A stretch of 53,032 bases of DNA from Betaproteobacteria bacterium RBG_16_66_20 (GCA_001770285.1 MEQQ01000066.1:15058-68089), one strand, 5' to 3'. Numbered from the stretch's first letter, positions 36,601 through 53,032 are shown. Notes: generated by a model not told the origin, from the sequence alone. Numbers and translations: made by a program.

Positions 36601-37233
36601 ATGTGTGGTCGCTATGCACTTCACGCCAATCCCGAGGTGGTGTCCCTTCTATTCGGGCTCTCGAAAGTTCCTGCCTATCAGCCGCGCTACAACATCGCGC
36701 CGGCATCGCAGGTCCTGATCATCCGGAAATATGAAGCCGCGATGGTCCGCTGGGGCCTCGTCCCGCGCTGGGCCAAAGATCCGTCCATCGGGGCGAAATT
36801 GAACAACGCCCGCGCCGAAAGCGTGGCGGAGAAGCCGTCGTTCCGCGATGCGTACCGCAAGCGCCGCTGCCTCATTCCGGCGAGCGGCTTTTACGAATGG
36901 AAGACCGAGGCCGGCCGCAAGCAGCCCTACTACGTGTTGCCGTCCGCGGGCGAGCTGTTCGCATTCGCCGGCCTGTGGGAGGAATGGAACGGGCCCGAGG
37001 GCGCGCTCCAGACCTGCGCCGTCATCACCACCGAGTCGAACGAAAAAATGCGCGCGGTGCACGACCGCATGCCGCTGATCGTCGCCCCGGAGGACTACCC
37101 CAGGTGGCTCGCAGGCGGCGCCGGGCTGCCGCGGCCCTGCCCGGCCGGCGCGATCGAAATCCGCAGGGTGAGCCGCGCGGTCAACAATGCGCGCAACGAC
37201 GCCGCCGGCCTGATCGAGCCCGACGGCAGCTGA
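36601..37233 (+). CDS. SOS response-associated peptidase (SRAP/YedK family, abasic-site processing protein)
   Basis: The invariant N-terminal MCGRY (Cys2), [23 protein letters not shown] and HDRMPLIV are present. Confidence 0.9.
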
Positions 37234-37234
37234 T

Positions 37235-37264
37235 TTGCGCCCGGCGGCAACTACTGGATATAAT
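37235..37264 (+). promoter_or_regulatory. Probable lexA promoter
   Basis: TTGCGC - 18 nt - TATAAT (37259..37264). The -10 element lies inside SOS box 1. Confidence 0.5.
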
Positions 37265-37287
37265 GCCAGCACTGAACAAGGGCACAG
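37254..37287. promoter_or_regulatory. Two tandem LexA (SOS) boxes
   Basis: CTGGATATAATGCCAG (37254..37269) and CTGAACAAGGGCACAG (37272..37287) both fit the beta/gamma-proteobacterial CTG-N10-CAG (CTGT-N8-ACAG) operator. They sit directly upstream of the lexA RBS GGAGG. Confidence 0.75.
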
Positions 37288-37303
37288 TGGCCCGGAGGCT
37301 GCG

Positions 37304-37933
37304 ATGAGCGAACCCCTGACCGAACGCCAGACCGAGATCCTGCGCCTGATCAAGGACCTCACCGAGGTGTCGGGTTTCCCGCCGACGCGCGCCGAGATCG
37401 CCGAGCGCATGGGCTTTCGCTCCGTGAACGCGGCCGAGCAGCACCTGCGCGCGCTGGAGCGCAAAGGCGCGCTGGAAATCTCCGCCGGATCCTCGCGCGG
37501 CATCAAGATCCGCGAGCGCGGCGGCCCGCGTCACGGGCGCCTGCTCGAGCTGCCGGTGATCGGCCGGGTCGCGGCCGGAAGCCCGATCCTCGCCGAAGCG
37601 CACGTGCAGGCACGCTATCAGATCGATCCCAACCTGTTCACGCCCCGCGCCGATTACCTGCTGCGCGTGCGCGGCCTGTCGATGCGCGACGCCGGCATCC
37701 TCGAAGGCGACCTGCTCGCAGTTCACCGCACGCAGGACGCGCAGAGCGGGCAGGTGGTGGTGGCGCGCATCGGCGACGAGGTGACCGTCAAGCGCCTGCG
37801 GCGCCGCGGACACGCGGTCCAGCTGCTGTCCGAGAACCCCGATTTCAAGCCGATCGAACTCGACCTGCGTCACGACGAAATGGCGATCGAGGGCGTCGCC
37901 GTCGGCGTGATCCGCAGCGGCAAAAGTCTGTAA
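37304..37933 (+). CDS. lexA: LexA repressor
   Basis: [12 protein letters not shown] ... FPPTRAEIA (winged HTH), the Ala-Gly cleavage site VAAGSP, the catalytic Ser (GLSM) and Lys (VKRL) are present. The start is set at ATG 37304. Confidence 0.95.
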
Positions 37934-38011: not shown

Positions 38012-39805
38012 ATGAATTCCCCAAGCACCGCCGCGCCTCAGGTTTCCGCCGCCGAGAGTATCGACCTGCGCCAGTCGGCGGATCCGCGCCGCATCCTCGC
38101 CGACCGGGTCAGGCAGCTCTACAGCCAGATGCCGCTGGCGATCGTCGGCAGTTTCCTGATCAGCGCCATCGCGGCCTACGAGCTGCGCGAGGGGCGCTTT
38201 GTGGAGATCGTGGTGTTCTGGGCCGGCCTGGTGGTGCTCCTCACCCTCGCCTGCGCAGGCCTGTACTGGGGCTACCGCAAGAGCGCGCGCAAGATCGAAG
38301 AGGCCGCACAGTGGCTGCGATGGCTCGGCATCAGCGCGCTCGCGATCGGCGCGACCTGGGGTTTCGCCGGCGCGGTGTTCTTCCCTTCCCATGCCGACGA
38401 GCAGCAGGTGTTCCTCGCGCTGGTGATTTCGCTCCTGGTCGCGGCCGGCATCCCGATCTACGCGGTGTCCTGGCCGATCTACGCGGCGTACGCGGCGGGC
38501 ATCCTGTTCCCGTTCACCTATGTGCTGGCGACCTTCGGCAACAAGCTGTTCGCCGAAATCGCGCTGATCGTGCCGGCGTTCTACCTCCTCAACGTCGGCA
38601 TCGCCTACCGCCTGAACGGCGTGTTCGATTCCGGCTTCCGGCTGCGCCACGCCTACGGCAAGCTGACCGAGGACTACACCGCTCTCAACCAGCGGCTCGA
38701 GCAGCAGCTCGTCGAGCTGGAGGAGGCGCGCCGCCAGGTCGAGGCCTCCGGCAGGAAACTGGCGCTGTTCGCGGAGCGCTCGCCGATCGCGGTGTTCGAG
38801 TTCGACCCGGCAGGCCGGATCCTGAGCGCGAACCCTGCCGCCGAAACGTTGTTCGGTTTCAGTTCGCGCGAGATGGTCGGGCGTCCCGGCACCGATACCC
38901 TGTTCCCGAGCGGCGCGAAGGACGACATCCGCGCGCGCTGGCGCAGCCTGATCCAGTCGCGCGAGCCGGTATTCGGGCTGCGGCTGAGCAACACGCGCCG
39001 CGACGGCGCGGAAATCACCTGCGAGTGGAGCCTGACCCCGCTGGTCAATCCGGAGAACCTCGTCATCTCGGTGATCGTGCAGGGCCGCGACATCACGCAG
39101 CAGCTCGAGGCCGAGCGCATGAAGCAGGAATTCACCTCCACGCTGAGCCACGAACTGCGCACCCCGCTCACCTCGATCATCGGTTCGCTGCAGCTGATCA
39201 ATTCGGGCGTGCTGGGGGAGATCGAGAAGGACACGCTCGAGCTGACCACCATCGCCGAGCGCAACGGCCAGCGGCTGCTCGACCTCATCAACGACATCCT
39301 CGACGTGGAAAAGATCGAGTCCGGCAAGCTCACCCTGTTCCCCGAAGTCCTCGATCTGGGCGAGCTCGTCAACGAGTCGCTGGCCCTGAACCGGGGTTTT
39401 GCCGACGGCTTCAAGGTGCGCCTCGCCACCGCCGGCGAACTTGCACAGGTCAGGGTGAACGCGGACCGCAAGCGCCTGCTGCAGGTCATGACCAACCTGC
39501 TGTCGAACGCGGCCAAGTTCTCGCCCGAAGGCAGCGTCGTGGACGTCACCCTGGAAAATATCGACGGCGGCAAGGTGCGCGTCGGCGTGCATGATTGCGG
39601 CCCGGGTATCCCGGAGGATTTCCGCGACCGGATTTTCGGCCGCTTCGCCCAGGCCGACATGTCCTATACGCGCCAGAAGGGCGGCACCGGCCTCGGGCTT
39701 TCGATCTGCAAGCGCCTGCTCGAAATGATGGGCGGGCGGATCGGCTTTTCCGGACGCGAAGGCAGCGGCACCACCTTCTGGTTCGAGCTGCCGCAACAAG
39801 CCTGA
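38012..39805 (+). CDS. Sensor histidine kinase: multi-TM N-domain + PAS + HisKA + HATPase
   Basis: About 6 predicted TM helices are followed by a coiled-coil, a PAS domain (SPIAVFEFDPAGRILSANPAAETLFGF), the H-box STLSHELRTPLTSI, the N-box LLSNAAKFSP and the G-boxes DCGPGI / GGTGLGLSI. The 37982..40348 minus ORF is its antisense shadow. Confidence 0.85.
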   Translation: MNSPSTAAPQVSAAESIDLRQSADPRRILADRVRQLYSQMPLAIVGSFLISAIAAYELREGRFVEIVVFWAGLVVLLTLACAGLYWGYRKSARKIEEAAQWLRWLGISALAIGATWGFAGAVFFPSHADEQQVFLALVISLLVAAGIPIYAVSWPIYAAYAAGILFPFTYVLATFGNKLFAEIALIVPAFYLLNVGIAYRLNGVFDSGFRLRHAYGKLTEDYTALNQRLEQQLVELEEARRQVEASGRKLALFAERSPIAVFEFDPAGRILSANPAAETLFGFSSREMVGRPGTDTLFPSGAKDDIRARWRSLIQSREPVFGLRLSNTRRDGAEITCEWSLTPLVNPENLVISVIVQGRDITQQLEAERMKQEFTSTLSHELRTPLTSIIGSLQLINSGVLGEIEKDTLELTTIAERNGQRLLDLINDILDVEKIESGKLTLFPEVLDLGELVNESLALNRGFADGFKVRLATAGELAQVRVNADRKRLLQVMTNLLSNAAKFSPEGSVVDVTLENIDGGKVRVGVHDCGPGIPEDFRDRIFGRFAQADMSYTRQKGGTGLGLSICKRLLEMMGGRIGFSGREGSGTTFWFELPQQA

Positions 39806-39814
39806 GAGGACCCC

Positions 39815-40204
39815 ATGCCCGCGCAAGCGCTCAACCGCATCTGCTACGTAGAGGACGACGAGGACATCCAGAGGATCGTGCGCATGTCGCTCGAGCGCGT
39901 CGGCAAGATGACGGTCGAAGTGGTCGGCGATCCGTTGGTCGCGATCGACCGGATCATTGCATTCAAGCCCGATCTGGTGATGCTCGACTGGATGATGCCC
40001 GGGATGGACGGGCCGACGCTCTATCGCAAGATGCTGGAAACGCCTGAGACCAAATCGATGCCGGTGGTATTCATCACCGCCAAGGCCTCGCAACGCGAAC
40101 TCGACGAACTGCGCAAGCTGGGCGCCGCGGGCACCATCTCGAAGCCCTTTTCCCCCAAGGACCTGCCCGAGCAACTGCGCGCCATCTGGCAAGCATTGCC
40201 GTAA
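39815..40204 (+). CDS. Single-domain response regulator (CheY-like receiver)
   Basis: YVEDDEDI, the phospho-acceptor context DLVMLDWMMPGMDG, VVFITA and ISKPF are present. It lies 9 nt downstream of the kinase. Confidence 0.85.
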   Translation: MPAQALNRICYVEDDEDIQRIVRMSLERVGKMTVEVVGDPLVAIDRIIAFKPDLVMLDWMMPGMDGPTLYRKMLETPETKSMPVVFITAKASQRELDELRKLGAAGTISKPFSPKDLPEQLRAIWQALP

Positions 40205-40253
40205 GGCAACGCGCGCCAAAACCGGCTTGCCCGGAACTCGGGCCGCTGCAGGC

Positions 40254-40685
40254 TCAGCGCGCTCCGGGGTCGCTGCGGTCGGCGTTGCCTGCCGCCTGCT
40301 GCAGATGCACCGGCAGGTGCTCGCGCACGGCGGCGGCGAGCGTTTCACGCAGAATCGGCTTCACGATGTGCACGCTCGCGCCCAGCCTGCGGCAACGCTC
40401 GATCGACTCCGGATCGTCCAGCACCGAGACCACGAGCACGGGAGTGCTGCGGTTCGGCGAGCGTTCCCCGCGCAGCCACTCGAGCACGTCGAAGCCGCTT
40501 GCGTCGGGCATCAGCAGATCGAGCAGGATGATGTCGAAGCGCGTTTGCCGCATCTGGCGTTCAGCCTCGTCGGCGCCTCCGGCGAGCGTCACCTCGACCG
40601 GCAATTCCTGCGTCAGGATGCGCGCGATCAGCAGGCGCGTCGGCTCGTTGTCATCCACCACCAGGATCCGGATTTGCGCAGTCAT
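40254..40685 (-). CDS. Single-domain response regulator (receiver only)
   Basis: ILVVDDNEPTR, DIILLDLLMPDASG, VLVVSV and IVKP are present. The start is set at ATG 40685, 7 nt after the stop of the upstream FecR-domain gene. Confidence 0.8.
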   Translation of the reverse strand: MTAQIRILVVDDNEPTRLLIARILTQELPVEVTLAGGADEAERQMRQTRFDIILLDLLMPDASGFDVLEWLRGERSPNRSTPVLVVSVLDDPESIERCRRLGASVHIVKPILRETLAAAVREHLPVHLQQAAGNADRSDPGAR

Positions 40686-40692
40686 GGGATGC

Positions 40693-42195
40693 CTATCGGC
40701 CAAGCAGGGCGGCGCCGGATATGGTCTGGGCGGCCGCCTTCAAGCCGAACGATGTGATCATCCTCTGCGCCGCGCCGCCGACAAACAGGCCGTGCGCGGT
40801 GCCATTGGCGGGGACGGAGGGGGGAGGCAATCCGCCCCCCGCGCAACCGGCGCAGCTGCCGCTCAGCGAGATTCCGGAGGCGCCGCCGAACTGCGCGAAC
40901 GAACCACTGCCGCTCGCAGTCCAGTTTGCCGCGCCGATCGACGCATTCAGGTTGTAGCTGGTGATCTGCTGCGTGCCGAAATTGACGCCCGCGCTGAGCG
41001 AGTTGATCGTACCTTGCGCGCCGGCCTGGTTCGTCGGCGCAGGTCCGCCCGCGTAGTTGTACGTTGCAGTGACCAGCATCGCCGGCATCGCCGCGAGCTG
41101 CGCCGCGCTCGTCAGTTGCGTGCTGTTCATGAAATGCGTGCCTCCGTTCGTGGCGTTGCCTGCGACCGTGGCGAGGCCGCCAGTCCAGGTTCCCCAGTCC
41201 ACGCCCCAGGCGGCATCGCCGTTGCTGTTGGCGAGCGGCGCGCCATTGGTAACGATGGCGAGATTCACACCCGAGCGTGTCGCGCTGACGCCACTCACTG
41301 GATCGAATCCAACCACGCCCCCCATACCACCGCCACCCGGGACGCCACTGCCCGCGCCACTGCCGCTTCCCGCACTTCCTGCGCCGCCGCTCAGGCGGAT
41401 GCCGCTTGCGGTGACTACATCCTGCGTCACCTTCGGCTTAACGCTCTCCGCGTCCGCAGACCCGGCATCAGACGGCCGCGGCACCCCCGTACGCGACTGC
41501 GGTCCTACCGTCCTGTTGAAGAACCCGGGAATCCCGGGGAGCAGCGAAGGCATTTCGCCCGCTGAAGCCGCATAGCCAACCTGGTTGGGCGCGACCACCA
41601 CTTCACCCGCCTCGGTGCGGATGAACACCAGACCGACATTGACCTTGTTGTACACGCCCGATTGCGCGATGCCGCCGTTCGCCGGCTGGGGCGCGGAGAA
41701 GTAATACGATTCGTGATCGGTGCCGCGCACGCCCATCTGGGCGATCGGCGTCTCGATCAGGTAGTTGTCCTTGTTGCTCCGGCCAATGGCACCGGTAACA
41801 GCCCGAAAGCCGCCCTGCTCGAGCCGGTAGCGGACCCGCTCGGATCCGTCCTCGCGCCCGTCATAGCGGAACTCGACTACGGTAACGCGCGTTCCGGGCT
41901 GCACCACCACGACTGCCCCGTCGCCCATCTTGATCTGCGCAGTGCCCGATTTTTCGCTCAGCACCGTCTCGCCCACGGAAAGCGGCGTGCCCTTGCGCGC
42001 CGGCTTGCCTGCGCCGTTGGCGGACTGGACCTGCACCTCCCCCACAACGAACTGGAACACGCCGGCCACGGTGCCAAGCGCAACAGCCGGCCATCCCGCG
42101 ACGCAGGCGACCAGCAGCGCTCGAACTGTCGTTGCAATCAGATTCACCGCCCGGCACCTTTCCACCCTGACCAGCAAGCCGAAACGACTATACAT
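40693..42195 (-). CDS. Exported FecR-domain protein with Gly-rich linker and C-terminal TbpB/fHbp-like small beta-barrel domain
   Basis: The N-terminal hydrophobic segment is TTVRALLVACVAGWPAVALG. This could be a lipobox (LVAC) or an SPase I site (ALG/T). The FecR-type region is FVVGEVQVQSANG...PARKGTPLSVGETVLSEKSGTAQIKMGDGAVVVVQPGTRV. A linker GGAGSAGSGSGAGSGVPGGGGMGG follows. The C-terminus is ATYNYAGG...GTINSLSAGVNFGTQQITSYNLNAS...WTASGSGSF...GTAHGLFVGGAAQRMITSFGL. The start is uncertain (ATG 42195, GTG 42228 or GTG 42147). Confidence 0.7.
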   Translation of the reverse strand: MYSRFGLLVRVERCRAVNLIATTVRALLVACVAGWPAVALGTVAGVFQFVVGEVQVQSANGAGKPARKGTPLSVGETVLSEKSGTAQIKMGDGAVVVVQPGTRVTVVEFRYDGREDGSERVRYRLEQGGFRAVTGAIGRSNKDNYLIETPIAQMGVRGTDHESYYFSAPQPANGGIAQSGVYNKVNVGLVFIRTEAGEVVVAPNQVGYAASAGEMPSLLPGIPGFFNRTVGPQSRTGVPRPSDAGSADAESVKPKVTQDVVTASGIRLSGGAGSAGSGSGAGSGVPGGGGMGGVVGFDPVSGVSATRSGVNLAIVTNGAPLANSNGDAAWGVDWGTWTGGLATVAGNATNGGTHFMNSTQLTSAAQLAAMPAMLVTATYNYAGGPAPTNQAGAQGTINSLSAGVNFGTQQITSYNLNASIGAANWTASGSGSFAQFGGASGISLSGSCAGCAGGGLPPPSVPANGTAHGLFVGGAAQRMITSFGLKAAAQTISGAALLGR

Positions 42196-42265
42196 CCTTA
42201 CAGTAGACCTTAGCACCGCCCGCGGCACGGACCGAATGCGCGATTCTTGCCTTTTTTGACATTGA

Positions 42266-43648
42266 TTACCTGAAATCGTGCCGCAGGGTAATCCCGAAAT
42301 CGTGTCGGGTGTAGGCGTAGATCGGAATGTTAGACCCCTGGCGGGTCGAGCGCACCGCCAGCCGCAGGCGCAGATCAGCGATCAGCTGGTACTGCAGTGC
42401 GATTTCCAGGTCTTCGCGCCGGTCGTGGCGCGTGACCAGGAAGGCGGGATCCGCGCGCCGGTACGCCGCGTCCTGCAAGCCCGCGCTGGCCTGCAGCGAG
42501 AGCCGCCCGGCGAGCGCCTGCTCCACCCCGAGCAGCAGGCCCCATAGCCGCCGGTCGCCGCCGGGATTGCCGCCAACGTCATGTTCCCGTCCCGCCGAGA
42601 GGTTGCCGTAGAGCGCGGCCCCCGAATCCCAGCCGCGCCGCGCACCGACGCCGGCGGAGGCGAAATCGGCGTCGAAGACGCGTTGCTCGGCAGGGAGGTG
42701 CCGGAAACGCCCCGCCTGCGCAAACCCGGACCATCGGCTGCCATCCCCCGGGACTTCGCTGACCTCCAGCGCGAGCGCGCTCACGTCGCGGCTCGCCCGG
42801 CGATCGAGATAGGAGCGCGCCGACAGCAGCTGCGCGCGCGCGAAAAACCGGTCCCAGATCCGGGCCACCCCGATCCGTGCCGCGCCAGCGTCGATATCGA
42901 ACTGCGATTCGCGTGCGTTGCGCCGCTGGATCGCGTCGACGCCGCCAATCAGCGCATGGCGCTGGTCGATCTGGTGCGTGACGTCGATGCCCGCGCTCAA
43001 CCCGGCATAGCTGTCCGCCCGGCGCAGGTTGCGGCCCGCAAGATCGACTTCGGCTCCGAACAGCGGCACGAAGATGCGCGCCTGCGCGGCTGCGGCATTC
43101 ACATTCGAGTCGCGGCCGGCGCTTGCGGCCACGAAGCCGCTGATGAAGGTGCGCCGCTCGCCCGCGCCGCCGGCCTGCACCAGATAGGCCGCCAGCCGGT
43201 CGCGCACTGCCGCGGGCGGATCCAGAGCGAGCAGGCCCTCGAACACGATGCGCGCCTGCTCGCGGTTGCCGAGCGCGAGATACGCGCGACCCATGTCGAT
43301 CGAAGCGCCGGCATGCGTTGGATCCGACGCAAGCACCCGGGTAAACGCCAGCGTCGCGCGATCCGGCCTTCCGGATTCGAGCGCGGCGCGGCCAAGGGCG
43401 TAGTCGAAATCGATCTCGCCGATGTAATCATCTTCCTTCGCGGCGAGCGCACGGTAGGCCTCGTCCGCCTTGCCCGCCGCGCTCAGGATGCGTGCCTGCT
43501 CGAGCAGCCCCGCCCGCGCCTCGGACCCCGCGGCCTGCGCCTGCGCCGCGCCCGGCGCGGCCGCGAATGCCGCCACAAGCAACGCGCACGCGAAGGCGCG
43601 TCCGAGCGCCGCGCTACGCCGTTCCTCTAGAATGCACCGGCCCCCCAT
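42266..43648 (-). CDS. Outer-membrane protein: signal peptide + TPR domain + C-terminal beta-barrel, Slam/DUF560-like (probable)
   Basis: The signal peptide is AFACALLVAAFAAAPGAAQA. The TPR-like segment is DFDYALGRAALESGRPDRATLAFTRVLASDPTHAGASIDMGRAYLALGNREQARIVFEGLLALDPPAAVRDRLAAYL. About 290 aa of alternating-polarity strands follow (GRDSNVNAA ... LEIALQYQL ... LRLAVRSTRQGSNIPIYAYTRHDFGITLRHDF). Size and layout match surface-lipoprotein-assembly-modifier proteins as I remember them. Confidence 0.6.
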   Translation of the reverse strand: MGGRCILEERRSAALGRAFACALLVAAFAAAPGAAQAQAAGSEARAGLLEQARILSAAGKADEAYRALAAKEDDYIGEIDFDYALGRAALESGRPDRATLAFTRVLASDPTHAGASIDMGRAYLALGNREQARIVFEGLLALDPPAAVRDRLAAYLVQAGGAGERRTFISGFVAASAGRDSNVNAAAAQARIFVPLFGAEVDLAGRNLRRADSYAGLSAGIDVTHQIDQRHALIGGVDAIQRRNARESQFDIDAGAARIGVARIWDRFFARAQLLSARSYLDRRASRDVSALALEVSEVPGDGSRWSGFAQAGRFRHLPAEQRVFDADFASAGVGARRGWDSGAALYGNLSAGREHDVGGNPGGDRRLWGLLLGVEQALAGRLSLQASAGLQDAAYRRADPAFLVTRHDRREDLEIALQYQLIADLRLRLAVRSTRQGSNIPIYAYTRHDFGITLRHDFR

Positions 43649-43667
43649 AAGCGGGATTATCCACGCG

Positions 43668-46370
43668 ATGTCTGCCCCGATGCCGATTCGCCTCTTGACA
43701 GTGCTGGCGCTCGCACTCGGCTTCGCCTCCCTGTGCTCGCAGACGGCCCTCTATTCCAGGTTCCAGGGATGGCTTGAGGACGCGCAGCAGCGCCTGTTTG
43801 CCGAGCCGCTCGCGTTCGAGCATGCCGTCGTGTTCGACGTCGACGAGGAATCCATGCAGCGCCTCGAGGGACGGGTGGGCGCTTGGCCCTACCCGCGCGA
43901 TGTCTATGCGCGCACGGCGCGCTTTCTCGCCGCGCAGGGCGCGCGCGCGATCGCCTACGATATCCTGTTTTCCGAGGCGCGTCCGGGCGATGACGACTTC
44001 GCGCGAGTGCTTGACGCGCGCAGCGTCCTTGCCGCCGCGGCGCTGCCCTACACGCTGCGGCGCACCGCGGCGTACCAGGAGCAACTCGGCGGGCTCGCAC
44101 TGCCCCTCGATGGCGCGCCTGCACGGATCTGGCCCGACTTGACGCTGCCGCAGCCGCGCCTCACCTTGAACTCGGGTGCGCGGGCCGGTGCCATCAGCGC
44201 GCCCGCCGATGACGACGGCACGGTACGCAGGATTCACGTTCTGCACCAGGCCTATGGACGTGTTCTGCCGAGCCTGGCACTGGGCGCGCTGCTCGCGGCC
44301 GCGCCCGGCTCGCCGCTCGCATACGACGCCGGATCGCTGCGCCTCGGCGAGCGCGCCTGGCCTCTCGGCGCCGACGGCTCGGTCGTCCTGCGATTCCCGT
44401 CCAACGCCGCGGCGCTGCCCGTGGTCCCGTTTCACCAGCTGCACGAGGCCGCGGCTGGCGCGCCGGGAACGCTTCATATCGGCGACCTGGTGAACGGAAA
44501 GATCGTCTTCATCGGCAGCTCGAGCGCGATCCTGGGCGATTATGTGTTCACGCCCATCGGCCAGCTCTCCGGCTTGAAGTTCAGCGCCCTCGCGAGCGAA
44601 CTGCTGCTCGAAGGCCGCGTCCTGCGTCCTGCGCGCCTCGCCGTCGACGCCCTGCTGGCCGCGCTCGCGCTGCTGCTGCCGGCGCTCCTCGCGTATCGCG
44701 GCCCGCGGGCCCGGCCGCGCGAGTTCGCAATCGGTTTCGCGCTTGTGCTGCTCGCCGCGGCCGGGGCGGGCGGCGCGCTGTTCGCCGCCGGCCAGCAATC
44801 GCGCTGGCTGTTCGCGGCGCTCGCCGGCAGTTCGGCGCAGGCGATCGCACTGTGCGCCTGGCTGCTCGCTCTTTACCGCGAGCGCGAACGCCTTTACTAC
44901 GAGAAGCTCGCCGCCGAGCAGGCCAACCGGATGAAAACCGCGTTCCTGAACCGCATGACCCACGAGTTGCGCACGCCGCTCACCGCGATCACGGGTTTCA
45001 ACAAGATCAACCAGCTGAGCGACGATCTCGGACGCGCGCAGCGCGTGCACAACAGCGCGATCATTGCACGCAACTGCGAACACCTGCTGTCGCTGATCAA
45101 CGATCATCTGGACACCGCGCGTATCGCCGCGGGCCAGCTCCGCATAGAGCCGAGGGCGGTGGACCCGACTGCGCTGCTCGAGGACGTCGTTACGACGATG
45201 CGGGTCATGGCCGACGCGAAGGGCCTGCAGCTGTCGCTCCGTTTCGCACAGCCGCTGCCGGCCGCGATCCGCCTGGACCCGCTGCGCCTGCGGCAGATCC
45301 TGCTCAATCTGCTGGGCAACGCCGTCAAGTTCACCGCCCGCGGGTCGGTGGAGGTCGAGGCGTCCTGGGAACCGCAGCTTCTCCGGTTCTCCGTGCGCGA
45401 TACGGGCCCGGGCATACCCGCGGATTCGCTGGCGCGCGTGTTCGATCCCTTCGAGCGTGACGCCGGCGCCAAGGAGCCCGGAACCGGCTTGGGCCTGTCG
45501 GTCACGCGCGAACTGGTGCGCCTGATGCAGGGCACCATCTCGGTTACGTCGAGTCCCGGCGCAGGAACGCGGTTCTCGGTCAGCGTGTCCGCAACCGAAG
45601 AGAAGGCGGCCGTCGCGGCTGCCGTTGCGGCCGCCCCGGTGCCGCCGGCCCGGCCTCTCGTCGGCCGGGTCCTGGTCGCTGACGACAACCGGGACTTGCG
45701 CGAGCTCTTGCTGTTCCAGCTCGGCGAGCTGGGTCTGGAATGCGCCGCTGTTGCCGACGGTTTCGAAGCGGTCGAAGCTGCGACGCGGGGCGGCTTCGAC
45801 CTCGTCCTGCTCGACATGGAAATGCCGCGCATGAACGGCTGGGAAGCCGCGCACGTGCTGCGCGCGCGAGGCTTCGATCGCCCGGTCGTCGCCCTCACGG
45901 CGCACGAGACCGCGGGCGAGGCCGAGCGCGCGCTGAGCGAGGGCTGCGACCGGATCCTGCGCAAGCCCTGCAGCATCGAATCCTTGCATGCCGCGCTCGG
46001 GCCGCTGCTCGAGGGGGCCGCTCCGCTGGCGCCGCCGCAGGCCCGCCCCGCGACGTCGCGCGCCACCGGCACCGATCGCGCGGTGGTCCAGGTCGATCCC
46101 CGGATCGCCGACCTGGCGGAGAAATTCGTGGAAAGCGCGCGCCGCGACACCGCGCGGGCGCGACTGGCGCTCGACGCACGCGACCTGGACCAGGTCCGGC
46201 TGATCGGCCACACGCTGCGGGGCAGCGCAAGCTCCTACGGCTTCGACGCGGTCGCCCGGCTCGGAGGACTGCTCGAGCACGCGGCGCGCAACGAGGACGT
46301 CGATTCGGCCGACCGCGTCACCACGCGGCTCGCCGACTACCTCGCCCGCGTCGAGATCCGATTCGGCTGA
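43668..46370 (+). CDS. CHASE2-domain hybrid sensor histidine kinase (CHASE2 - 3 TM - HisKA - HATPase - REC - Hpt)
   Basis: There is an N-terminal TM and the CHASE2 signature region VVFDVDEESMQRLEGRVGAWPYPRDVYARTARFLAAQGARAIAYDILFSE. Three TM helices follow, then the H-box MTHELRTPLTAITGF, GTGLGLSVTRELV, a receiver (VLVADDNRDL ... DLVLLDMEMPRMNG ... VVALTAH) and an Hpt (IGHTLRGSASSYGFDAV). The start is set at ATG 43668. The 43614..46280 minus ORF is an antisense shadow. Confidence 0.85.
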   Translation: MSAPMPIRLLTVLALALGFASLCSQTALYSRFQGWLEDAQQRLFAEPLAFEHAVVFDVDEESMQRLEGRVGAWPYPRDVYARTARFLAAQGARAIAYDILFSEARPGDDDFARVLDARSVLAAAALPYTLRRTAAYQEQLGGLALPLDGAPARIWPDLTLPQPRLTLNSGARAGAISAPADDDGTVRRIHVLHQAYGRVLPSLALGALLAAAPGSPLAYDAGSLRLGERAWPLGADGSVVLRFPSNAAALPVVPFHQLHEAAAGAPGTLHIGDLVNGKIVFIGSSSAILGDYVFTPIGQLSGLKFSALASELLLEGRVLRPARLAVDALLAALALLLPALLAYRGPRARPREFAIGFALVLLAAAGAGGALFAAGQQSRWLFAALAGSSAQAIALCAWLLALYRERERLYYEKLAAEQANRMKTAFLNRMTHELRTPLTAITGFNKINQLSDDLGRAQRVHNSAIIARNCEHLLSLINDHLDTARIAAGQLRIEPRAVDPTALLEDVVTTMRVMADAKGLQLSLRFAQPLPAAIRLDPLRLRQILLNLLGNAVKFTARGSVEVEASWEPQLLRFSVRDTGPGIPADSLARVFDPFERDAGAKEPGTGLGLSVTRELVRLMQGTISVTSSPGAGTRFSVSVSATEEKAAVAAAVAAAPVPPARPLVGRVLVADDNRDLRELLLFQLGELGLECAAVADGFEAVEAATRGGFDLVLLDMEMPRMNGWEAAHVLRARGFDRPVVALTAHETAGEAERALSEGCDRILRKPCSIESLHAALGPLLEGAAPLAPPQARPATSRATGTDRAVVQVDPRIADLAEKFVESARRDTARARLALDARDLDQVRLIGHTLRGSASSYGFDAVARLGGLLEHAARNEDVDSADRVTTRLADYLARVEIRFG

Positions 46371-46378
46371 GGCCGGCC

Positions 46379-47644
46379 CTAGAGCTTGACCGTGGTCTCG
46401 GCGCGGTAGGCGCCGGTTCCCTGGTAGTACTTGCGCGACAGGAAGCCGATCACCTCGTCGGCGTTCCTGAAGCGCGCATCGCGGTCTTTCTCCACCAGCT
46501 TGTCCATCAGGCGCTGGTACGGGGCGAGGTACTCCGGCAGGTCCGGCGGCTGCGTGTTCAGGTGGTGCAGCGCGACCTCCACCGCGGTCTCGCCGTCGAA
46601 CAGGTGCGTTCCGGTGAGCATCTGGAACAGCAGCACGCCGGCGCTGTAGATGTCGGTGCGCAGGTCGAGCGCTGCGCCCCGCACCTGCTCCGGGCTCATG
46701 TAGCGCGGCGTGCCGAGGATCTCGCCGTGCCCGGTGCGGTCGATCGAATCGACGTGCTTGGCGATGCCGAAATCCAGGATCGCGAGGCTGCCGTCGGAGC
46801 GGAACATCAGGTTCTGCGGCTTGAGGTCCCGGTGCAGGATGCCCTGCTCGTGGATGTCGCCCAGGGCGAACATCAGTTCGCGGAAGATCTGCAGCGATTC
46901 ATCGGGCGGCAGCGGCCTGCCGCCGAGCCGCTTGTTCAGGTCGCCGCCATCGAAGAACTCCATCACCAGGTAGGCATGCTCGCCGGAGACGCCGTGGCTG
47001 TGGATGCGCGCCACGTGCCGGCTGCGGATCCGTTCGACCAGGTTGTACTCCTCGATGAAGCGCCCGAGGGCGGTCTTGTCCGAGGTCACCTCGCTCCGCA
47101 GGATCTTCACCACCAGCGGCTCGTCGTCGCCCTCGCGCGACGCGAGGTAGACGCGCGACATGCCGCCCTCGCCGATCAGGTGCAGCACCTTGATTCCCGG
47201 GATCCGGATGCTCGCGCCGAGCTGGTGGCCGGCCTGGCGCGCCGCGTCCTCCGGCGAAGCGGCTTTTTCGGCCACGCCGCGGGTCAGCTCGCGCACCGAG
47301 GTCGCCAGTTTCTCGCGCGTCAGTTCCTGCTTGCGCTGGTAATCGTCCGCACCCGCCTTCATGGCGCGCACCGCGATCACCTCGTTGCCCGCCCCGGTGA
47401 GGAACAGCACCGGCGGGCAATCGGCGCGCTTCTTGAACTGCTGCAGCCACTCCAGGCCGTCGCCGCGCCCCAGCATGTAATCGAGGATCACCACGTCGTA
47501 GGCGCCGAGCGGGAACGAGGCGTCGGGCATGTCGCGCTCGAGCGGGTCGAACTGCTCGACCTGCAGCTCCGGCCATTCCTGCTTCAGGTGATGCGCGAGG
47601 ATGTTCCGCAGATCCTCGTCGTCGTCGATGATCAGGACTTTCAC
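46379..47644 (-). CDS. Response-regulator receiver fused to a Hanks-type Ser/Thr protein kinase
   Basis: The REC domain shows VLIIDDDEDL, VVILDYMLGRGDG, VLFLTGAG and ADDYQRK. The kinase shows the G-loop IGEGGMSRVY, VVKIL, HRDLKPQNLMF, DFGIAK and GTPRYMSPEQ. Confidence 0.85.
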   Translation of the reverse strand: MKVLIIDDDEDLRNILAHHLKQEWPELQVEQFDPLERDMPDASFPLGAYDVVILDYMLGRGDGLEWLQQFKKRADCPPVLFLTGAGNEVIAVRAMKAGADDYQRKQELTREKLATSVRELTRGVAEKAASPEDAARQAGHQLGASIRIPGIKVLHLIGEGGMSRVYLASREGDDEPLVVKILRSEVTSDKTALGRFIEEYNLVERIRSRHVARIHSHGVSGEHAYLVMEFFDGGDLNKRLGGRPLPPDESLQIFRELMFALGDIHEQGILHRDLKPQNLMFRSDGSLAILDFGIAKHVDSIDRTGHGEILGTPRYMSPEQVRGAALDLRTDIYSAGVLLFQMLTGTHLFDGETAVEVALHHLNTQPPDLPEYLAPYQRLMDKLVEKDRDARFRNADEVIGFLSRKYYQGTGAYRAETTVKL

Positions 47645-47661
47645 GCCCCGCCCCCTTCCCC

Positions 47662-48798
47662 TTACGCCGCCACGCGCAATGCCACCACTTCGAGCGGCTC
47701 GGCTTTCCCTTTCAAGGCCACCGCGCGCCGCTCGACCGCCGTCGCGCCCCCGAGCATCGCGTGCAGCGACAACGCGGCGCGCGGCCCGATCAGGATCTCG
47801 TTCGCCGCCGCGGTCTGCATCAGGCGCGCCGCGACGTTCACCGGATCGCCGATGATGGTGTAGCTCATGAAACTGGGCGCGCCGACGTTGCCGACCACCA
47901 CTTCGCCGGACTCGATCCCGATCCCGATACCGGTGGCAAGGCCGTGCTCGGCCCTCCAGCGCGCCGCCACCGGCGCGAAGCGCTCGATCATCGCGCGCGC
48001 GGTCCTGACTGCGCGCGCAGTGGCATCGGGCTGCTGCACCGGCACGTTGAATCCGACCAGCAGGCTGTCGCCCGCCATGCTGAACACGGTCCCCTCGTTG
48101 TCATGCACTGCCGCAGTCAATTCGGTGAAAAACTCATTCAACATCGGCACGATATTCGACACCGGCACGGCCTCCGAGAGGTGCGTGAAACCGCGCAGGT
48201 CGGCGAACAGCGCCACCACCGCGGTGCGCTCGGAGAGGTTGCGGAACACGGCCTCGCCGTCCGGGCTTTCGCGCAGCACGCGTTCGGCGAGGCGCGGCGA
48301 CAGGTAGCGCGAAAAGGCCTTGCGGATCGCCTCCTTGGCCTGCACCTCGGCGGCGAGCCGCCGGCCTTCCAGTTCCTTGCGGGTTTCGTGCAGGCGGCGC
48401 AGCGTCTTGACGCGCGCCAGCAGTTCCTCGCGCTGCACCGGCTTGGAGAGGAAATCGTCGGCGCCGGCCTCGATGCCGCGCACGCGGCTCTCGTGGTCCT
48501 CGAGCGCGGTGATCAGCACCACCGGCAGGAGCGCCGTCGAGTCCTCGCTCTTCAACCGGCGGCAGATGTCGAAGCCGCTCGGGCCGGGCATCTGCACATC
48601 GAGCAGCACCAGGTCGGGCGGCGCGGCCGCGATCATCTCCAGCGCGACATGGCCGTCGGCGGCGATGTCCGCGTGCATGCCCTGCTGCGCGAGCAGCAGG
48701 GCGAGGAACCCCGCCATGTCCGGATCGTCGTCGACCACCAGGACGCGGAACGCGGCCTGTGCGGCGTGCGCCACGCGCCCGGAGGCGAGCTCACTCAT
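47662..48798 (-). CDS. Response-regulator receiver fused to a class III nucleotidyl (adenylate/guanylate) cyclase domain
   Basis: The REC domain shows VLVVDDDPDM, LVLLDVQMPGPSG, VVLITAL and DDFLSKP. The cyclase shows VVALFADLRGFT, MAGDSLLVGF and IIGDPVNVAARL. The start at ATG 48798 overlaps the Hpt gene stop (ATGAGTGA). Confidence 0.85.
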   Translation of the reverse strand: MSELASGRVAHAAQAAFRVLVVDDDPDMAGFLALLLAQQGMHADIAADGHVALEMIAAAPPDLVLLDVQMPGPSGFDICRRLKSEDSTALLPVVLITALEDHESRVRGIEAGADDFLSKPVQREELLARVKTLRRLHETRKELEGRRLAAEVQAKEAIRKAFSRYLSPRLAERVLRESPDGEAVFRNLSERTAVVALFADLRGFTHLSEAVPVSNIVPMLNEFFTELTAAVHDNEGTVFSMAGDSLLVGFNVPVQQPDATARAVRTARAMIERFAPVAARWRAEHGLATGIGIGIESGEVVVGNVGAPSFMSYTIIGDPVNVAARLMQTAAANEILIGPRAALSLHAMLGGATAVERRAVALKGKAEPLEVVALRVAA

Positions 48799-49096
48799 AG
48801 ACGATCTGCACCCGCGCGAGGTAGTCGGCGTATTCGGCGATGCGCGCCTCGAGCCCGGCGCGGTCGCCGGCCTTCGCGCCGTCCTCGATCTGCTTGCCGA
48901 GCGTCGACACCAGCTCGAAACCGTAGGAGTTGCCCACACCCTTCATGCGGTGGCCGAGCTGGCGCAGCTGCTCCATGTTGCCCGCGGCAAGCGCCGCGCG
49001 CAGCGCTTCGACTTCCTTGGAGCGGTTTTTCATGAACGTCGGGATCAGGTCCTCGAGGTCCTTGGCAACGGTGACGGCAATCGGTTGGGCGGTCAT
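48791..49096 (-). CDS. Stand-alone histidine phosphotransfer (Hpt) protein
   Basis: The 101-aa helical protein has the Hpt signature LRQLGHRMKGVGNSYGFELV. Confidence 0.8.
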   Translation of the reverse strand: MTAQPIAVTVAKDLEDLIPTFMKNRSKEVEALRAALAAGNMEQLRQLGHRMKGVGNSYGFELVSTLGKQIEDGAKAGDRAGLEARIAEYADYLARVQIVYE

Positions 49097-49149
49097 GAAA
49101 CGATTATAAGGTGTTGAAGAAAAAGCCGCTTTCTGCAGTGTTGTGAAAG

Positions 49150-52107
49150 TCAGTGAAAGTCCCGCGAGCGCAGCCTGAGGCCGCCGGGCGAGCCTCCCTG
49201 CAGGCGTACGAGGAGCCGGCTGTGGTCCTCCAGCCGCCGCGCGATCAGGTGCACCACCCGGCCCTCCCGCTCGATCACCCCCTCCACCCCCAGCAGGCGC
49301 GCGCCGAGCAATTCCCGGCGCTGGCGCTCGAGCAGGCTGCGCCAGACCACCACGTTGACGCAGCCGCTCTCGTCCTCGAGCGTCACGAACACCACCCCGC
49401 TCGCGGTATCCGGCCGCTGCCGGCAGGTGACCAGCCCGGCAGCGCGCGCGAGGCTGCCATGCGGAAGCAAACAGAGGTTTTCTGCTTTTACTATCTTTAG
49501 TTTTCCCAGGTGATTTCTCAAAAGAGCGAGCGGATGTCTTCCCAGCGTGAAACCAAGGCTCCGGTAGTCGGCCACGATCTCCTCGCCTTCGGCAGGGGGC
49601 TCGAATTCAGGTTGGTTTTTCGTTCTTGTATCTGAAGACAAAAAGGCAGTTCCTTTCTCAACCCCGGACGCGGCCCAATGCGCGCTCCTGCGATGCCCCG
49701 CCAGGGACTGCAGCGCGCCCGCCGCAGCCAGGCAGTTCAGGTCCCTGCGGTTCAGGCCGGCGCGCTGCGCGAGATCCGCGACCGAAGCGCAGGGCCTGCT
49801 CGCCACGATCCGCTCCCCCGCAGCGGCGGCAAGGCCACCCACCATGCGCAAACCCAGGCGTACTGCGCCGTCCTCGAGCGTGCAGTCCCACTGGCTGAGC
49901 GCCGCGTCCGCCGGCCTGACTTCGACGCCGTGCCGCCGCGCATCCTGGACCAGTTGCGAAGGGCTGTAGAACCCCATCGGCTGGCTGTTGAGCAGCGCAG
50001 CGAGGAACGCCGCCGGATGGTGGCGCTTGAGCCAGGCCGAGGCGTAGACCAGCAGCGCGAAGCTCGCCGAGTGCGACTCGGGAAAGCCGTAGTCGCCGAA
50101 CCCCAGGATCTGGCGGTAGACCGCGTCGGCGAATGCCGGCGCATAGCCGTTCCTGCGCATCCCGCCTTTCAGTTTCTCCTCGAAAGGCTCGAGGCCGCCC
50201 TTCTTCTTCCATGCCGCCATCGAACGGCGCAGCTGGTCCGCCTCGCCGGGCGAGAAACCGGCGGCGACCATGGCGAGCTGCATCACCTGCTCCTGGAAGA
50301 TCGGTATGCCGAGCGTGCGCGCGAGCACGCTCTTCACCGCCCCGCTCGGATAGGCCACCGGCTCCAGGCCCTGCCGGCGGCGCAGGTACGGATGCACCAT
50401 GCCGCCCTGGATCGGCCCCGGGCGCACGATCGCCACTTCGATCACCAGGTCGTAGAAATTCTCCGGCTTCAGGCGCGGCAGCATCGACATCTGCGCGCGC
50501 GATTCGATCTGGAACACCCCGACGGTGTCGGCTCGCTGGATCATCTCGTAGACGGCGGGGTCTTCGGCGGGAATGTCTTGCATTTTTTTTCCTATGAAAT
50601 TCAACCCCCGGCGAAGGGCGGACAACATTCCCAGCGCCAGCACGTCCACCTTCAGCAGGCCGAGCGATTCCAGGTCGTCCTTGTCCCACTGGATCACCGT
50701 GCGATCCGCCATCGCCGCGTTCTCGACCGGCACCAGCTCGGCGAGCGGCCCGCGCGAGATGACGAAGCCGCCCACGTGCTGTGAGAGGTGCCGGGGAAAG
50801 CCAATCAGTGTTTCAACCAGATTCAAAAATGGACTCGATGAACCAAGTACCCTGTTGAGATCGCGCATGGCGCTTTTGCGCCGGTAGCAGATCACGCTCG
50901 CGGCGAGCGCCGCGCGCTCGCGGCCGTATTTCCGGTAGAGGTACTGGATCACCTCCTCGCGCCGCTCGTGCTCGAAATCGACGTCGATGTCGGGCGGTTC
51001 GTTCCGCTCCCTGGAAATGAAGCGCTCGAACAGCATGTTCATCCGGGCGGGATCGACTTCCGTGATGCCGAGGCAGTAGCAGACCGCCGAGTTCGCCGCC
51101 GAACCCCGGCCCTGGCACAGGATGCCCCGCGAGCGCGCGAACTGCACCACGTCGTGCACCGTGAGGAAGAAAGCCTCGTAGCCGAGCTCGGCGATGAGCG
51201 CGAGCTCGCGCCCGACCAGCTCGCGCACAGGGGCGGGCGCGCCGCCCGGGAAGCGCCATTGCAGGCCCCCGGCGGCGAGCTTGCCGAGGTGCGAGGCCGG
51301 CGTCTCGCCCGCCGGCACCAGTTCCTTCGGGTACTCGTAGCGCAGCGCATCCAGCGAGAAGCGGCAGCGGTCCGCTATTTTCACTGTTTCTTTAATTAAA
51401 TCAAAAGGATACAGTTGCGCTATGCGTGCACGCAGGCGCAAATGTCTTTCGCCATTTGAAAAAAGATTTTTCCCGCAACACGCGACCGGAACCCCCAGGC
51501 GGATCGCGGTAAGCGCGTCCTGCAGGCGCCGGCGCGAGCGCAGGTGCATGTGCACGTCGCCCGCGGCCACCAGCGGCAGACCGGAATGCCTTGAAATTGC
51601 ATCCAATCGCCTTAATTTTCCCGAATCGTTCGGGCCGCAATGCAATTCCGCCGCGAGCCAGCTGCCGCCCGGGAACCGCTCCCGGATCCAGAGCGCATCG
51701 TCAAGGGATGGTCTTTCTCCCGGCACCCAGAGGAGCAGCAGACCGTCCTCCGAGTGCACTTCCAGATCCCCCCGGGAAAGCGAGTACGCCCCTTTTCGCG
51801 CGCGCCTTCGCGCCGTGGTGATCAGCGCTGCGAGCGCGCCGTAGGCCCTGCGGTCCGGCGCGAGCAGGACCAGCTTCAGGCCGTCCTGCAGCAGGAACTC
51901 GGAACCGACGACCAGCTTGAAACCTTTTTCCTTCGCCGCCACGTGGGCGCGCACGATTCCCGCGAGCGAGCATTCGTCGGTGAGCGCGAGCGCCGCGTAG
52001 CCGAGCGCCGCGGCGCGCGCCGCGAGTTCCTCCGGCTGCGAGGCGCCGCGCAGGAAGCTGAAGTTCGACAGGCAGTGCAGCTCCGCGTATTCAGGCAAAC
52101 AGGCCAT
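49150..52107 (-). CDS. dnaE2: Error-prone DNA polymerase DnaE2 (ImuC)
   Basis: The PHP N-terminus is [25 protein letters not shown]. The Pol III alpha core shows [16 protein letters not shown] and [14 protein letters not shown], and an OB-fold C-terminus follows. The start is set at ATG 52107, overlapping the imuB stop by 17 nt. Confidence 0.93.
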
Positions 52108-53032
52108 GCAGGAACCAGTCCCCTCCCGGCTGCGCGCCCCGCTCCCGGTAGATCCACGCCAGCGAGGCTTCACCGGTGCGCGCGATGAAGTAGTCGCGCC
52201 GCGCCTCGGCGCCGTCCCACCAGCCCGACTCGATGCGCTCCGGCCCCGCGAGCAGCGTGAACTCGCCCTCCCGGATGCGGCGCGGCGCCTCGAGCAGCCA
52301 CAGGGGGCGCGGACTGGGGATTTCGTTTTGTTTTTCGATTGAATTCATGTTTTTTATTCCAAGTCCAATACGACAAAAGGCAAATTCCGGGCGGTGATCT
52401 TCATGAATTCCAAGGCCGTGCACCGCCTCGTTCCCGAGCCGCGCCTGCAGGCGCTCGATCAACCGCAGCCATTCCTCTGCGCTGCCGCGCCGATCATCGA
52501 AAAGGTTCTGGTTTTGTTCCGGAATATTTTCCAGGTCCCCGGCTTCGATCCCGATCGCCTCGATCGGCGACCTGAGCGCCAGCGCACCCAGGCGCTCGCG
52601 CAGCAGGCGCGCGAAATGCTCCGCGCCGCGGCCGGGCGCGGCGAGCCCCACTTTCACTTCGGTGGCGGGCAGGCCGTCGTGCAGCAGTTCGAGGACGAAG
52701 GCCCGCACCCCGGCCTGGCGCGCGGCGAGGAAGCCTTCCATCTGCGCGAGCAGCCGCCGCGCGGCGAACAGCGCGTTTTCGGCCTGCATCACCGGCGCGG
52801 GCAATTCGAGCCGCGCCGAAAAGCGCGCCGGCGGCACGAAGAATTCACGCGCCTCGGGCGCCTGGCCGCAGGCCTGGCCGAGCTCCTCGAGCAGGCCCTG
52901 CCCGAAACGCAGCGCCACGCCCTCGCGCGGCAGGCGCATCAGCCCGCCGATGGTCCTTATCCCGAGACTGGAGAGCAATTCGAGCGCCGCCGGGGCGAGG
53001 CCGGTCACGGCGACCGGCAGCGCCTCCAGCCT
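52091..53032 (-). CDS. imuB: ImuB (Y-family polymerase-like SOS mutagenesis protein), C-terminal part; gene continues past the window end
   Basis: The frame is open to the window edge (…[44 protein letters not shown]…). It lies immediately upstream of, and overlaps, dnaE2, as in imuA-imuB-dnaE2 cassettes. Confidence 0.85.

Follow-up and report, generated by a model that had tools for sequence, protein, structure and literature searches.

What does a bacterial operon accomplish when it couples one phosphotransfer protein to two response regulators that are both enzymes, and which nucleotide does one of these enzymes make? The question is raised by three genes within a 53,032-nucleotide stretch of DNA (hereafter the window, meaning this whole stretch at its full length) from Betaproteobacteria bacterium RBG_16_66_20 (GCA_001770285.1 MEQQ01000066.1:15058-68089), an uncultured soil Burkholderiales bacterium. 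On the minus strand, and in the order Hpt > cyclase > kinase, they encode (i) a stand-alone histidine phosphotransfer (Hpt) protein, (ii) a receiver-class III nucleotidyl cyclase, and (iii) a receiver-Hanks Ser/Thr kinase. Our analysis indicates that these genes are probably the output end of a multi-step His-Asp phosphorelay feeding both the cyclase and the kinase, and that the cassette, judged by its sequence, is a real and conserved variant of known signalling kinds. To our knowledge, DNA binding is the output of nearly all response regulators studied so far; in this case, the complete and conserved relay appears to end in two enzymes, each opening a further layer, namely a cyclic nucleotide and Ser/Thr phosphorylation, and the cassette may be viewed as a natural meeting point of the three principal signalling languages of bacteria.

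A preliminary description of this DNA had proposed that the three genes are coupled, and their layout bears this out. The Hpt stop codon TGA (48791-48793) and the cyclase start codon ATG (48798) share ATGAGTGA, an overlap of 8 nt, while the cyclase stop codon TAA (47662-47664) is separated from the kinase start codon GTG (47644) by 17 nt, which read GGGGAAGGGGGCGGGGC on the coding strand and are Shine-Dalgarno-like. Moreover, a search of 201 genomes of the order, of which the 20 best loci were inspected, recovered the Hpt-cyclase-kinase order in nine loci from two families (this genome, G000, together with G072, G166, G122, G013, G078, G127, G020, and G171), and the same order recurs in named contigs of metagenome-assembled genomes (MAGs). 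By this arrangement, the Hpt, cyclase, and kinase genes are a single conserved unit that is predicted to be translationally coupled. At least half of the sampled sequence words were found in 17 DNA runs (soil, sediment, and groundwater metagenomes), which indicates presence only.

The cassette also appears to start from a promoter of its own. In the 53-nt gap between dnaE2 and Hpt, a TATAAT box is followed by 6 nt and then by the Hpt ATG, and this gap holds no Shine-Dalgarno sequence ahead of the ATG. The pattern TATAATNNNNNNATG (TATAATN6ATG) has a single match on both strands of the window, and none of 100 shuffled sequences contained any match. Furthermore, TATAAT stands at the same distance from the Hpt ATG in 7 of 8 orthologous loci despite their diverged flanks, with the exception of G122, where a tetratricopeptide-repeat (TPR) gene intervenes; in several of these loci, a GC-rich hairpin precedes the box. 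Because the conserved box lies 6 nt before the ATG, without a Shine-Dalgarno sequence, the comparison suggests a dedicated promoter and a leaderless mRNA for Hpt. The -10 box emerged only from alignment of the orthologous upstream regions: a two-hexamer sigma-70 scan of positions 46200-49400 returned no promoter and two terminator-like sites, both on the wrong strand.

The stand-alone Hpt protein scores well above the Pfam cut-off for its family (PF01627; 37.4 bits against 24.6), and its His49, which lies in an HxxKG motif (GHRMKG), is invariant in 12 sequences. Only two Hpt-like sequences were found in the whole assembly, namely this protein and the C-terminal domain of a neighbouring CHASE2 hybrid kinase, which aligns with it end to end at 32% identity. 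Both potential recipients carry intact receiver signatures, as previously described. In the cyclase protein (Response_reg, 104.2 bits), whose receiver is nearest to that of PleD (133-136 bits), D23/D24, D67, T96, and K118 are all present in the translation, and D67 is invariant in 11 orthologues; in the kinase protein (Response_reg, 63.5 bits), all 8 aligned orthologues share D7, D8, D55, T83, and K105. Modelled in complex with the kinase receiver, Hpt reached a score of 0.64 (0.00 for the best of three controls), thereby passing a mark that is reached by 116 of 157 solved complexes and by 2 of 215 mismatched pairs. The docking runs agreed in 100% of contacts, the partner had a predicted local distance difference test (pLDDT) value of 90, and the modelled interface joins His49 to the rim of the receiver active site (residues 9-18, 57, 59, 84-85, and 105-106). 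Since Hpt-receiver complexes have already been solved, YPD1-SLN1 for example, the passing model may reflect only a likeness to these complexes.

The catalytic portion of the cyclase matches Guanylate_cyc in Pfam (PF00211) with 64.8 bits and combines the metal-binding Asp pair, the transition-state Asn/Arg pair, and the cyclase fold of class III nucleotidyl cyclases; NCBIfam gave no equivalog above cut-off for this protein, for Hpt, or for the kinase. The metal-binding residues D200 and D244, lying 44 residues apart as had been noted by eye, pair with the corresponding Asp residues in CyaC, CyaB, and Cya2 and are nearly invariant in a 50-sequence alignment, while N321 and R325 are present in PVNVAAR. 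An AlphaFold2 model built from that 50-sequence alignment (pLDDT 87.6; predicted template-modelling score 0.63) shows the receiver, a single continuous helix (residues 123-163), and then the cyclase domain. With this model, the top Foldseek match was CyaC (1wc3_B; E 1.1e-18, target template-modelling (TM) score 0.86, root-mean-square deviation (rmsd) 2.0 A, and 30% identity), followed by CyaB (3r5g) and Cya2.

The two positions that read the base behave differently from one another. In excerpts of the Ma1120 paper (PMC4215837), adenylyl cyclases are described as conserving a Lys and an Asp at these positions, whereas guanylyl cyclases carry a Glu and a variable second residue. In our HMMER alignment, GTVFSMAGD of the window cyclase pairs with GTVDKFVGD of CyaC (1wc1/1wc0), GTIDKFVGD of CyaB (3r5g), and GTIDEFMGD of the guanylyl cyclase Cya2 (2w01), so that S240, four residues before D244, stands opposite the Lys of CyaC and CyaB and the Glu of Cya2. 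The preliminary description had placed a Ser there by eye, and the formal alignment to solved structures upholds it. It had also counted the Thr at the partner position as non-canonical, which does not hold: SYTIIGDPVNVAARL of the window cyclase aligns with DFTAIGPSVNIAARL of CyaC and DYTIIGREVNLASRL of CyaB, both of which carry Thr where Cya2 has Gly, and T314 is invariant in 11 orthologues. By this alignment, Thr314 is an ordinary class IIIb partner residue rather than a second anomaly. The protein accordingly lacks the Lys of the adenylyl cyclase signature while having its Asp/Thr-type partner residue, and, with Ser240 opposite the Glu of Cya2, it lacks the Glu of the guanylyl cyclase signature. 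Because the Lys/Glu position is Ser in a proper alignment, the nucleotide product is not readable from the sequence, as had been proposed.

How exceptional, then, is a cyclase without this Lys? Ser/Thr occupies the two specificity positions in each of the 120 close metagenome homologues (77-97% identity), whereas orthologues from other genera have Asn/Thr (13 loci); among MAG orthologues, one at 61% identity has Asn and two others at ~60% have Ser. In a wider alignment, comprising the query and the best 150 representatives of 50%-identity clusters (151 rows), position 240 is Lys in 70 rows, Asn, Ser, His, or Gly in 57, Asp in 20, and another residue in 4, and 47 non-Lys rows precede the first Lys row in order of BLAST score. 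The lysine-less share amounts to 57 of the 151 rows, or 77 when the Asp-type rows are added, and all four catalytic residues are retained in 131. Moreover, the 57 rows differ from the 70 Lys rows by an eight-position signature, namely (i) D>F/L/I at 239, K>N/S/H/G at 240, F/Y>M at 241, and I/V/M>A at 242, together with (ii) V/F/L>G at 249, A>V at 252, R>Y/F at 310, and D/E>S/N at 312. Even within this 2.9-Mb assembly, Lys occupies the position in only 5 of 18 cyclase-domain places. A missing Lys is hence not very unusual, and Ser240 appears to mark a large, coherent, and apparently active branch rather than a one-off; we place the cyclase, by alignment, in a large and uncharacterised lysine-less branch of class IIIb. 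None of the solved structures among the PDB matches comes from this branch, the best match having ~30% identity. Because Ser, Asn, His, and Gly all occur at position 240, as under relaxed selection, a new and precise base contact seems less likely than a loss of the Lys contact. The unusual substrate suggested in the preliminary description therefore loses ground, because the missing Lys is common (only 70 of 151 rows retain it) and because Ser and Asn interchange among close orthologues, which argues against a finely tuned new substrate. The 'adenylate cyclase' labels attached to lysine-less proteins are unproven, and a single product assay on this branch would annotate thousands of genes.

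The second output, the kinase (Pkinase, 156.2 bits), retains every motif of a Hanks-type enzyme, in agreement with the earlier reading by eye: the Gly loop GEGGMSRV, the VAIK Lys K180, the alpha-C Glu E199, the HRD triad H271-R272-D273, the catalytic Asn N278, the DFG triad D291-F292-G293, and the APE-like motif SPE are invariant in 8 orthologues, as are T304 and T312 of the activation loop. The G127 kinase, which has an internal stop, was omitted from this alignment. The kinase is also the best-conserved protein of the cassette: compared with the sister genus, it retains 76-79% identity and the cyclase 53%. Receiver-controlled Hanks kinases had been called rare and little studied, which our searches confirm: full-length receiver-Hanks matches were found in 3 of 401 genomes of an even phylum sample, namely G000 (two copies), G462, and G264. 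In uncultured Burkholderiales, the orthologue is abundant (best 120 clusters among the matches listed, 84-95% identical). A search for related loci returned 80, mostly kinase-domain-only matches in other phyla, of which 15 were inspected (L038-L050, L070, and L097). Twelve of the 80 match the kinase query from about residue 1 to residue 400, and in seven of these (L044-L049 and L070) the receiver-kinase stands alone, neither Hpt nor the cyclase being matched at the thresholds used in the DNA of the locus (flank up to 7 kb where the contig extends that far). The second receiver-Hanks kinase of the genome (G000 C86:31566-32801; L037:2246-3814), with ~39-40% identity to the first, stands between an esterase gene and thyA and likewise has no Hpt or cyclase neighbour. 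In the literature searched, we found no description of a bacterial receiver-Hanks kinase, of such a cassette, or of a Ser/Asn-Thr cyclase, and the portions available of a 2005 census and of a phosphorelay review contain nothing on these fusions.

While the Hpt-cyclase-kinase operon was correctly recognised in the preliminary description, the sensors and the intermediate receiver of the full relay were overlooked. The window encodes two candidate sensor kinases and a stand-alone receiver beside the cassette (Table 1).

Table 1. Features of the window that make up or adjoin the relay
Feature	Coordinates	Strand	Description
Hpt phosphotransfer protein, stand-alone	48791-49096	-	101 aa; predicted phospho-His49 in GHRMKG; Pfam Hpt 37.4 bits
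Receiver-class III cyclase response regulator	47662-48798	-	378 aa; receiver 18-131, continuous helix 123-163, cyclase domain ~190-375
Receiver-Hanks Ser/Thr kinase response regulator	46379-47644	-	421 aa, GTG start; receiver 1-115, kinase 152-400
Putative own promoter	49094-49108	-	TATAAT box, 6-nt spacer, Hpt ATG; from orthologue comparison
CHASE2-HisKA-HATPase-REC-Hpt hybrid sensor kinase	43668-46370	+	Convergent to cassette; Pfam; candidate input sensor
PAS-HisKA-HATPase histidine kinase, no receiver	38012-39805	+	Pfam; candidate ancestral input sensor
Stand-alone receiver	39815-40204	+	129 aa; Response_reg 81.8 bits; candidate intermediate between PAS kinase and Hpt
FecR-domain protein	40693-42228	-	Pfam
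TPR protein	42266-43648	-	Pfam

The conservation of these upstream parts follows that of the cassette. Orthologues of the PAS kinase (56-74% identity) adjoin the cassette in 8 of 9 family-type loci, the contig of the ninth (L038) ending first, and orthologues of the lone receiver (71-90% identity) are convergent to the kinase gene in all nine. In the family to which the window belongs, imuB-dnaE2 precedes the cassette, and lexA > PAS kinase > lone receiver is convergent to it (G072, G166, G122, G013, and L039-L042). In the second family (G078, G127, G020, and G171), the cassette sits between fumarase and mfd, and a CHASE2 histidine kinase with a receiver lies directly upstream of Hpt on the same strand. 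The PAS kinase, the lone receiver, Hpt, and the two output receivers are thus encoded together and co-conserved, which is the make-up of a multi-step phosphorelay module. In the window, a block of ~6.2 kb (40205-46370), comprising the FecR, TPR, and CHASE2 kinase genes, separates the lone receiver from the cassette. The FecR and TPR proteins had no match in the 13 related loci searched, and among the family loci examined the block occurs only in this genome; it looks like an inserted sensor module, in which a role of the FecR and TPR proteins with the CHASE2 kinase is suggested by position only. We chose 43668 as the start of the CHASE2 kinase, this being the first Met before a membrane-like segment (the open-reading-frame call gives a TTG at 43470).

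The simplest reading of these data is a four-step relay that runs from kinase to receiver to Hpt to a pair of output receivers and that, in this genome, could be fed by either of two sensors. A sensor kinase would autophosphorylate, and the phosphoryl group would reach His49 of Hpt by one of two routes: (i) from the PAS kinase (38012) through the lone receiver (39815), or (ii) from the CHASE2 hybrid kinase (43668) through its own receiver. From Hpt, it would pass to Asp67 of the cyclase and Asp55 of the kinase, two response regulators that a single transcript would encode. Phosphorylated Asp67 would most likely align two cyclase domains through helix 123-163, giving an active dimer and a cyclic nucleotide, whereas phosphorylated Asp55 would most likely release or dimerise the Hanks kinase, which could then act on its activation loop (T304/T312) and on substrates. 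By analogy, the product would most likely be cAMP, and the specificity may be relaxed. Receivers for a cyclic nucleotide are plentiful, the assembly having 23 matches to cyclic nucleoside monophosphate (cNMP)-binding domains.

Several observations weigh against this four-step relay with a cAMP output. In G122 and G013 (L023:8304-9431 and L024:8375-9502), the cyclase reads FVELRGFA, NMTGES, and PVDTAAQL, amounting to D200E, D244E, N321D, and R325Q, and may be a pseudo-enzyme, while the receiver D67 and an open frame of 376 aa are kept. In one MAG contig (L042:5030-5075), the cyclase gene has been cleanly deleted, leaving ATG AGT GAT GCG TAG between Hpt and the kinase, a 4-codon remnant that retains the ATGAGTGA overlap. 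In such lineages, the relay may work without a cyclic nucleotide, and the cyclase protein may have a role beyond catalysis. A full-length orthologue of the CHASE2 kinase was found in none of the 4 family relatives searched, because of which the link of this sensor to the cassette rests on position and on the second family. Furthermore, the cassette holds no gene for a cNMP receiver, a phosphatase, or a kinase substrate, and, because Lys240 is absent, cAMP is a guess that draws on the fold neighbours and on known precedents.

The two outputs are separable, because the cyclase is dead (G122/G013) or deleted (L042) in some lineages and the kinase is absent in another, G192, which has Hpt and an intact cyclase. 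The 'deliberate signal splitting' that had been read into the pairing is consequently not obligatory. These natural variants, with the cyclase intact, dead, or deleted, or with the kinase absent, offer themselves for comparison. Two further disruptions, namely a G171 cyclase split over two frames and the internal stop of the G127 kinase, may be assembly errors; the G171 cyclase was excluded from residue counts except for the tally of the specificity position. In the G122/G013 pair, dN/dS was 0.22 for the cyclase, 0.06 for Hpt, and 0.09 for the kinase, which is a weak hint, as it comes from one barely diverged pair (dS ~0.1) in a GC-rich genome. The same two genomes carry a DUF3391-HD_5 (HD-GYP-like) gene after the kinase and a small TPR gene before Hpt.

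Could the lysine-less pocket instead yield a product other than cAMP, be it cGMP, a cyclic pyrimidine, or a mixture, that serves as a private second messenger of the relay? We consider this unlikely, although Ser240 does replace the adenine-reading Lys, and does so as part of the coordinated eight-position signature, in which two acid-base pairs round the base pocket turn neutral or aromatic; in addition, the retention of the catalytic residues makes the branch as a whole look active, and the 23 cNMP-binding-domain matches could include receivers of differing specificity. However, the lysine-less Rv1900c and Rv0386 still make mainly cAMP. The pocket has no Glu and with it no guanylyl cyclase signature, and the swap of Ser for Asn between orthologues of ~60% identity, together with the His, Gly, and Asp of neighbouring clusters, fits loosened selection better. 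Moreover, the residues reported to specify CTP in EaPycC (R142 and Q144, which precede the second metal Asp by four and two positions, according to excerpts of PMC11224242) correspond to Ser and Ala here. A more far-reaching proposal, which we regard as quite unlikely, is that the class IIIb cyclases without the Lys (Phi-[N/S/H/G]-M-A-G-D) form a functionally distinct enzyme class, whose remodelled, uncharged pocket would make a non-cAMP or deliberately mixed product, and that this messenger would act alongside the Hanks kinase in a single two-armed stress response, wired beside the SOS genes lexA and imuB-dnaE2.

It is quite unlikely, in our view, that the receiver-cyclase is chiefly a phosphate sink or scaffold tuning the flow from Hpt to the kinase, with catalysis secondary or dispensable. 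Such a role would account for the G122/G013 protein, in which neither the two metal Asp residues nor the Asn/Arg pair survive, although D67 and an open gene are kept and dN/dS is 0.22; for the MAG that cleanly removed the gene; and for the kinase always being the better-conserved partner. The dN/dS value is weak evidence for it, however, and all four catalytic residues are intact here and in 15 of the 17 orthologues read, while the intact cyclase of G192, lacking a kinase beside it, indicates that the cyclase can be the sole output. We also tried, and rejected, a reading of the cassette as anti-phage, with a Pycsar-type defence cyclase, to which we give next to no credence. The cyclase does match the PADLOC PycC model (PDLC00734) with 72.5-73.7 bits, above its 64.8 bits for Guanylate_cyc, and the kinase matches defence-kinase models as well. 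Yet the PycC match is generic, because it is exceeded by the 85.5-100 bits of four further cyclase domains from this genome (three Lys/Thr and one Gln/Thr). Besides, the neighbouring genes include no PycTM or PycTIR effector, the cassette lies in a two-component signalling context among housekeeping genes in two families, and there is no PycC structure among the 53 PDB sequence matches.

The cassette can be compared with several known systems. CyaC (Spirulina/Anabaena, class IIIb), like CyaB a bicarbonate-type adenylyl cyclase, has the closest cyclase domain of known structure (sequence E value 7e-22; Foldseek target TM score 0.86-0.89, with 29-30% identity) and carries Thr at the second substrate position, as here, but Lys where the window cyclase has Ser. 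Its cyclase is switched on by phosphotransfer to the adjacent receiver, and its own histidine kinase and GAF domains lie in one polypeptide, whereas the window encodes the kinase, the intermediate receiver, and Hpt in separate genes. The second-nearest structure, CyaB of P. aeruginosa (3r5g, class IIIb), has the same fold (rmsd ~2 A) and Lys/Thr, and is regulated by a membrane MASE2 domain rather than by a receiver. Precedents for activity without the Lys-Asp pair are found in the mycobacterial adenylyl cyclases Rv1900c (Asn/His) and Rv0386 (Gln/Asn), the former having at the Lys position the same Asn as most orthologues of the window cyclase outside its genus. Both are distant, being absent from the 53 PDB sequence matches, and differ in their second residue, in their domain context, and in having no receiver.

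On the relay side, the resemblance is to Spo0F/Spo0B-type or HptB-type systems, and the kinase arm resembles a Hanks kinase under the control of a regulatory domain at its N terminus. In the HptB-HsbR-HsbA system of P. aeruginosa, hybrid kinases feed a stand-alone Hpt, which in turn feeds a regulator with a Ser/Thr phospho-signalling output. HsbR, however, carries a PP2C phosphatase and an anti-sigma-type kinase, with no Hanks kinase and no cyclase branch, and pathways of this type include an STAS partner, whereas the output domains here are Guanylate_cyc and Pkinase, so that the resemblance is one of logic only. PleD and WspR follow the same logic as well, in that phosphorylation drives dimerisation of a nucleotide cyclase with its active site between subunits, but their GGDEF domain makes c-di-GMP, the domain here is class III, and the full-length Foldseek overlay is poor (rmsd 12-18 A). 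With PycC, the window cyclase has the class III catalytic core in common, and their hidden Markov models cross-match, whereas the EaPycC specificity residues and a nearby effector are absent here.

Some further observations concern the surroundings of the relay. It is flanked by SOS genes, with an SRAP/yedK-like gene (36601-37233) and lexA (37235-37933) on one side and imuB and dnaE2 (49150-53032) on the other; both neighbourhoods, lexA beside the PAS kinase and dnaE2 ahead of Hpt, are seen again in the family-type loci. Between the cassette and the CHASE2 kinase (46368-46381), the convergent stop codons of the two kinase genes lie 8 nt apart, and their spacer is a palindrome, GGCCGGCC, too short for separate terminators. 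In the other family, a lone receiver with 34-40% identity to that of the window is convergent after the cassette (L028:6781-7152 and L027:8392-8766, from G020 and G192). One locus titled as a Clostridia MAG (L039; JBLNDP010000152.1) carries a Burkholderiales-type imuB-dnaE2-Hpt-cyclase-kinase arrangement at 60-78% protein identity and is probably a mis-binned contig.

Finally, the assembly as a whole carries a heavy signalling load for its 2.9 Mb, with 19 Guanylate_cyc, 23 cNMP_binding, and ~10 Hanks-kinase matches to the query. In two places, FHA and cyclase-domain matches share an open frame (C86:12141-12881 and C87:4518-5251, the C87 cyclase match extending over two frames), and C99:1030-4651 holds a cluster of a PP2C, an FHA protein, and a Lys/Thr cyclase. 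These FHA and PP2C associations hint that other cyclases of the genome may be under the control of Ser/Thr phosphorylation.

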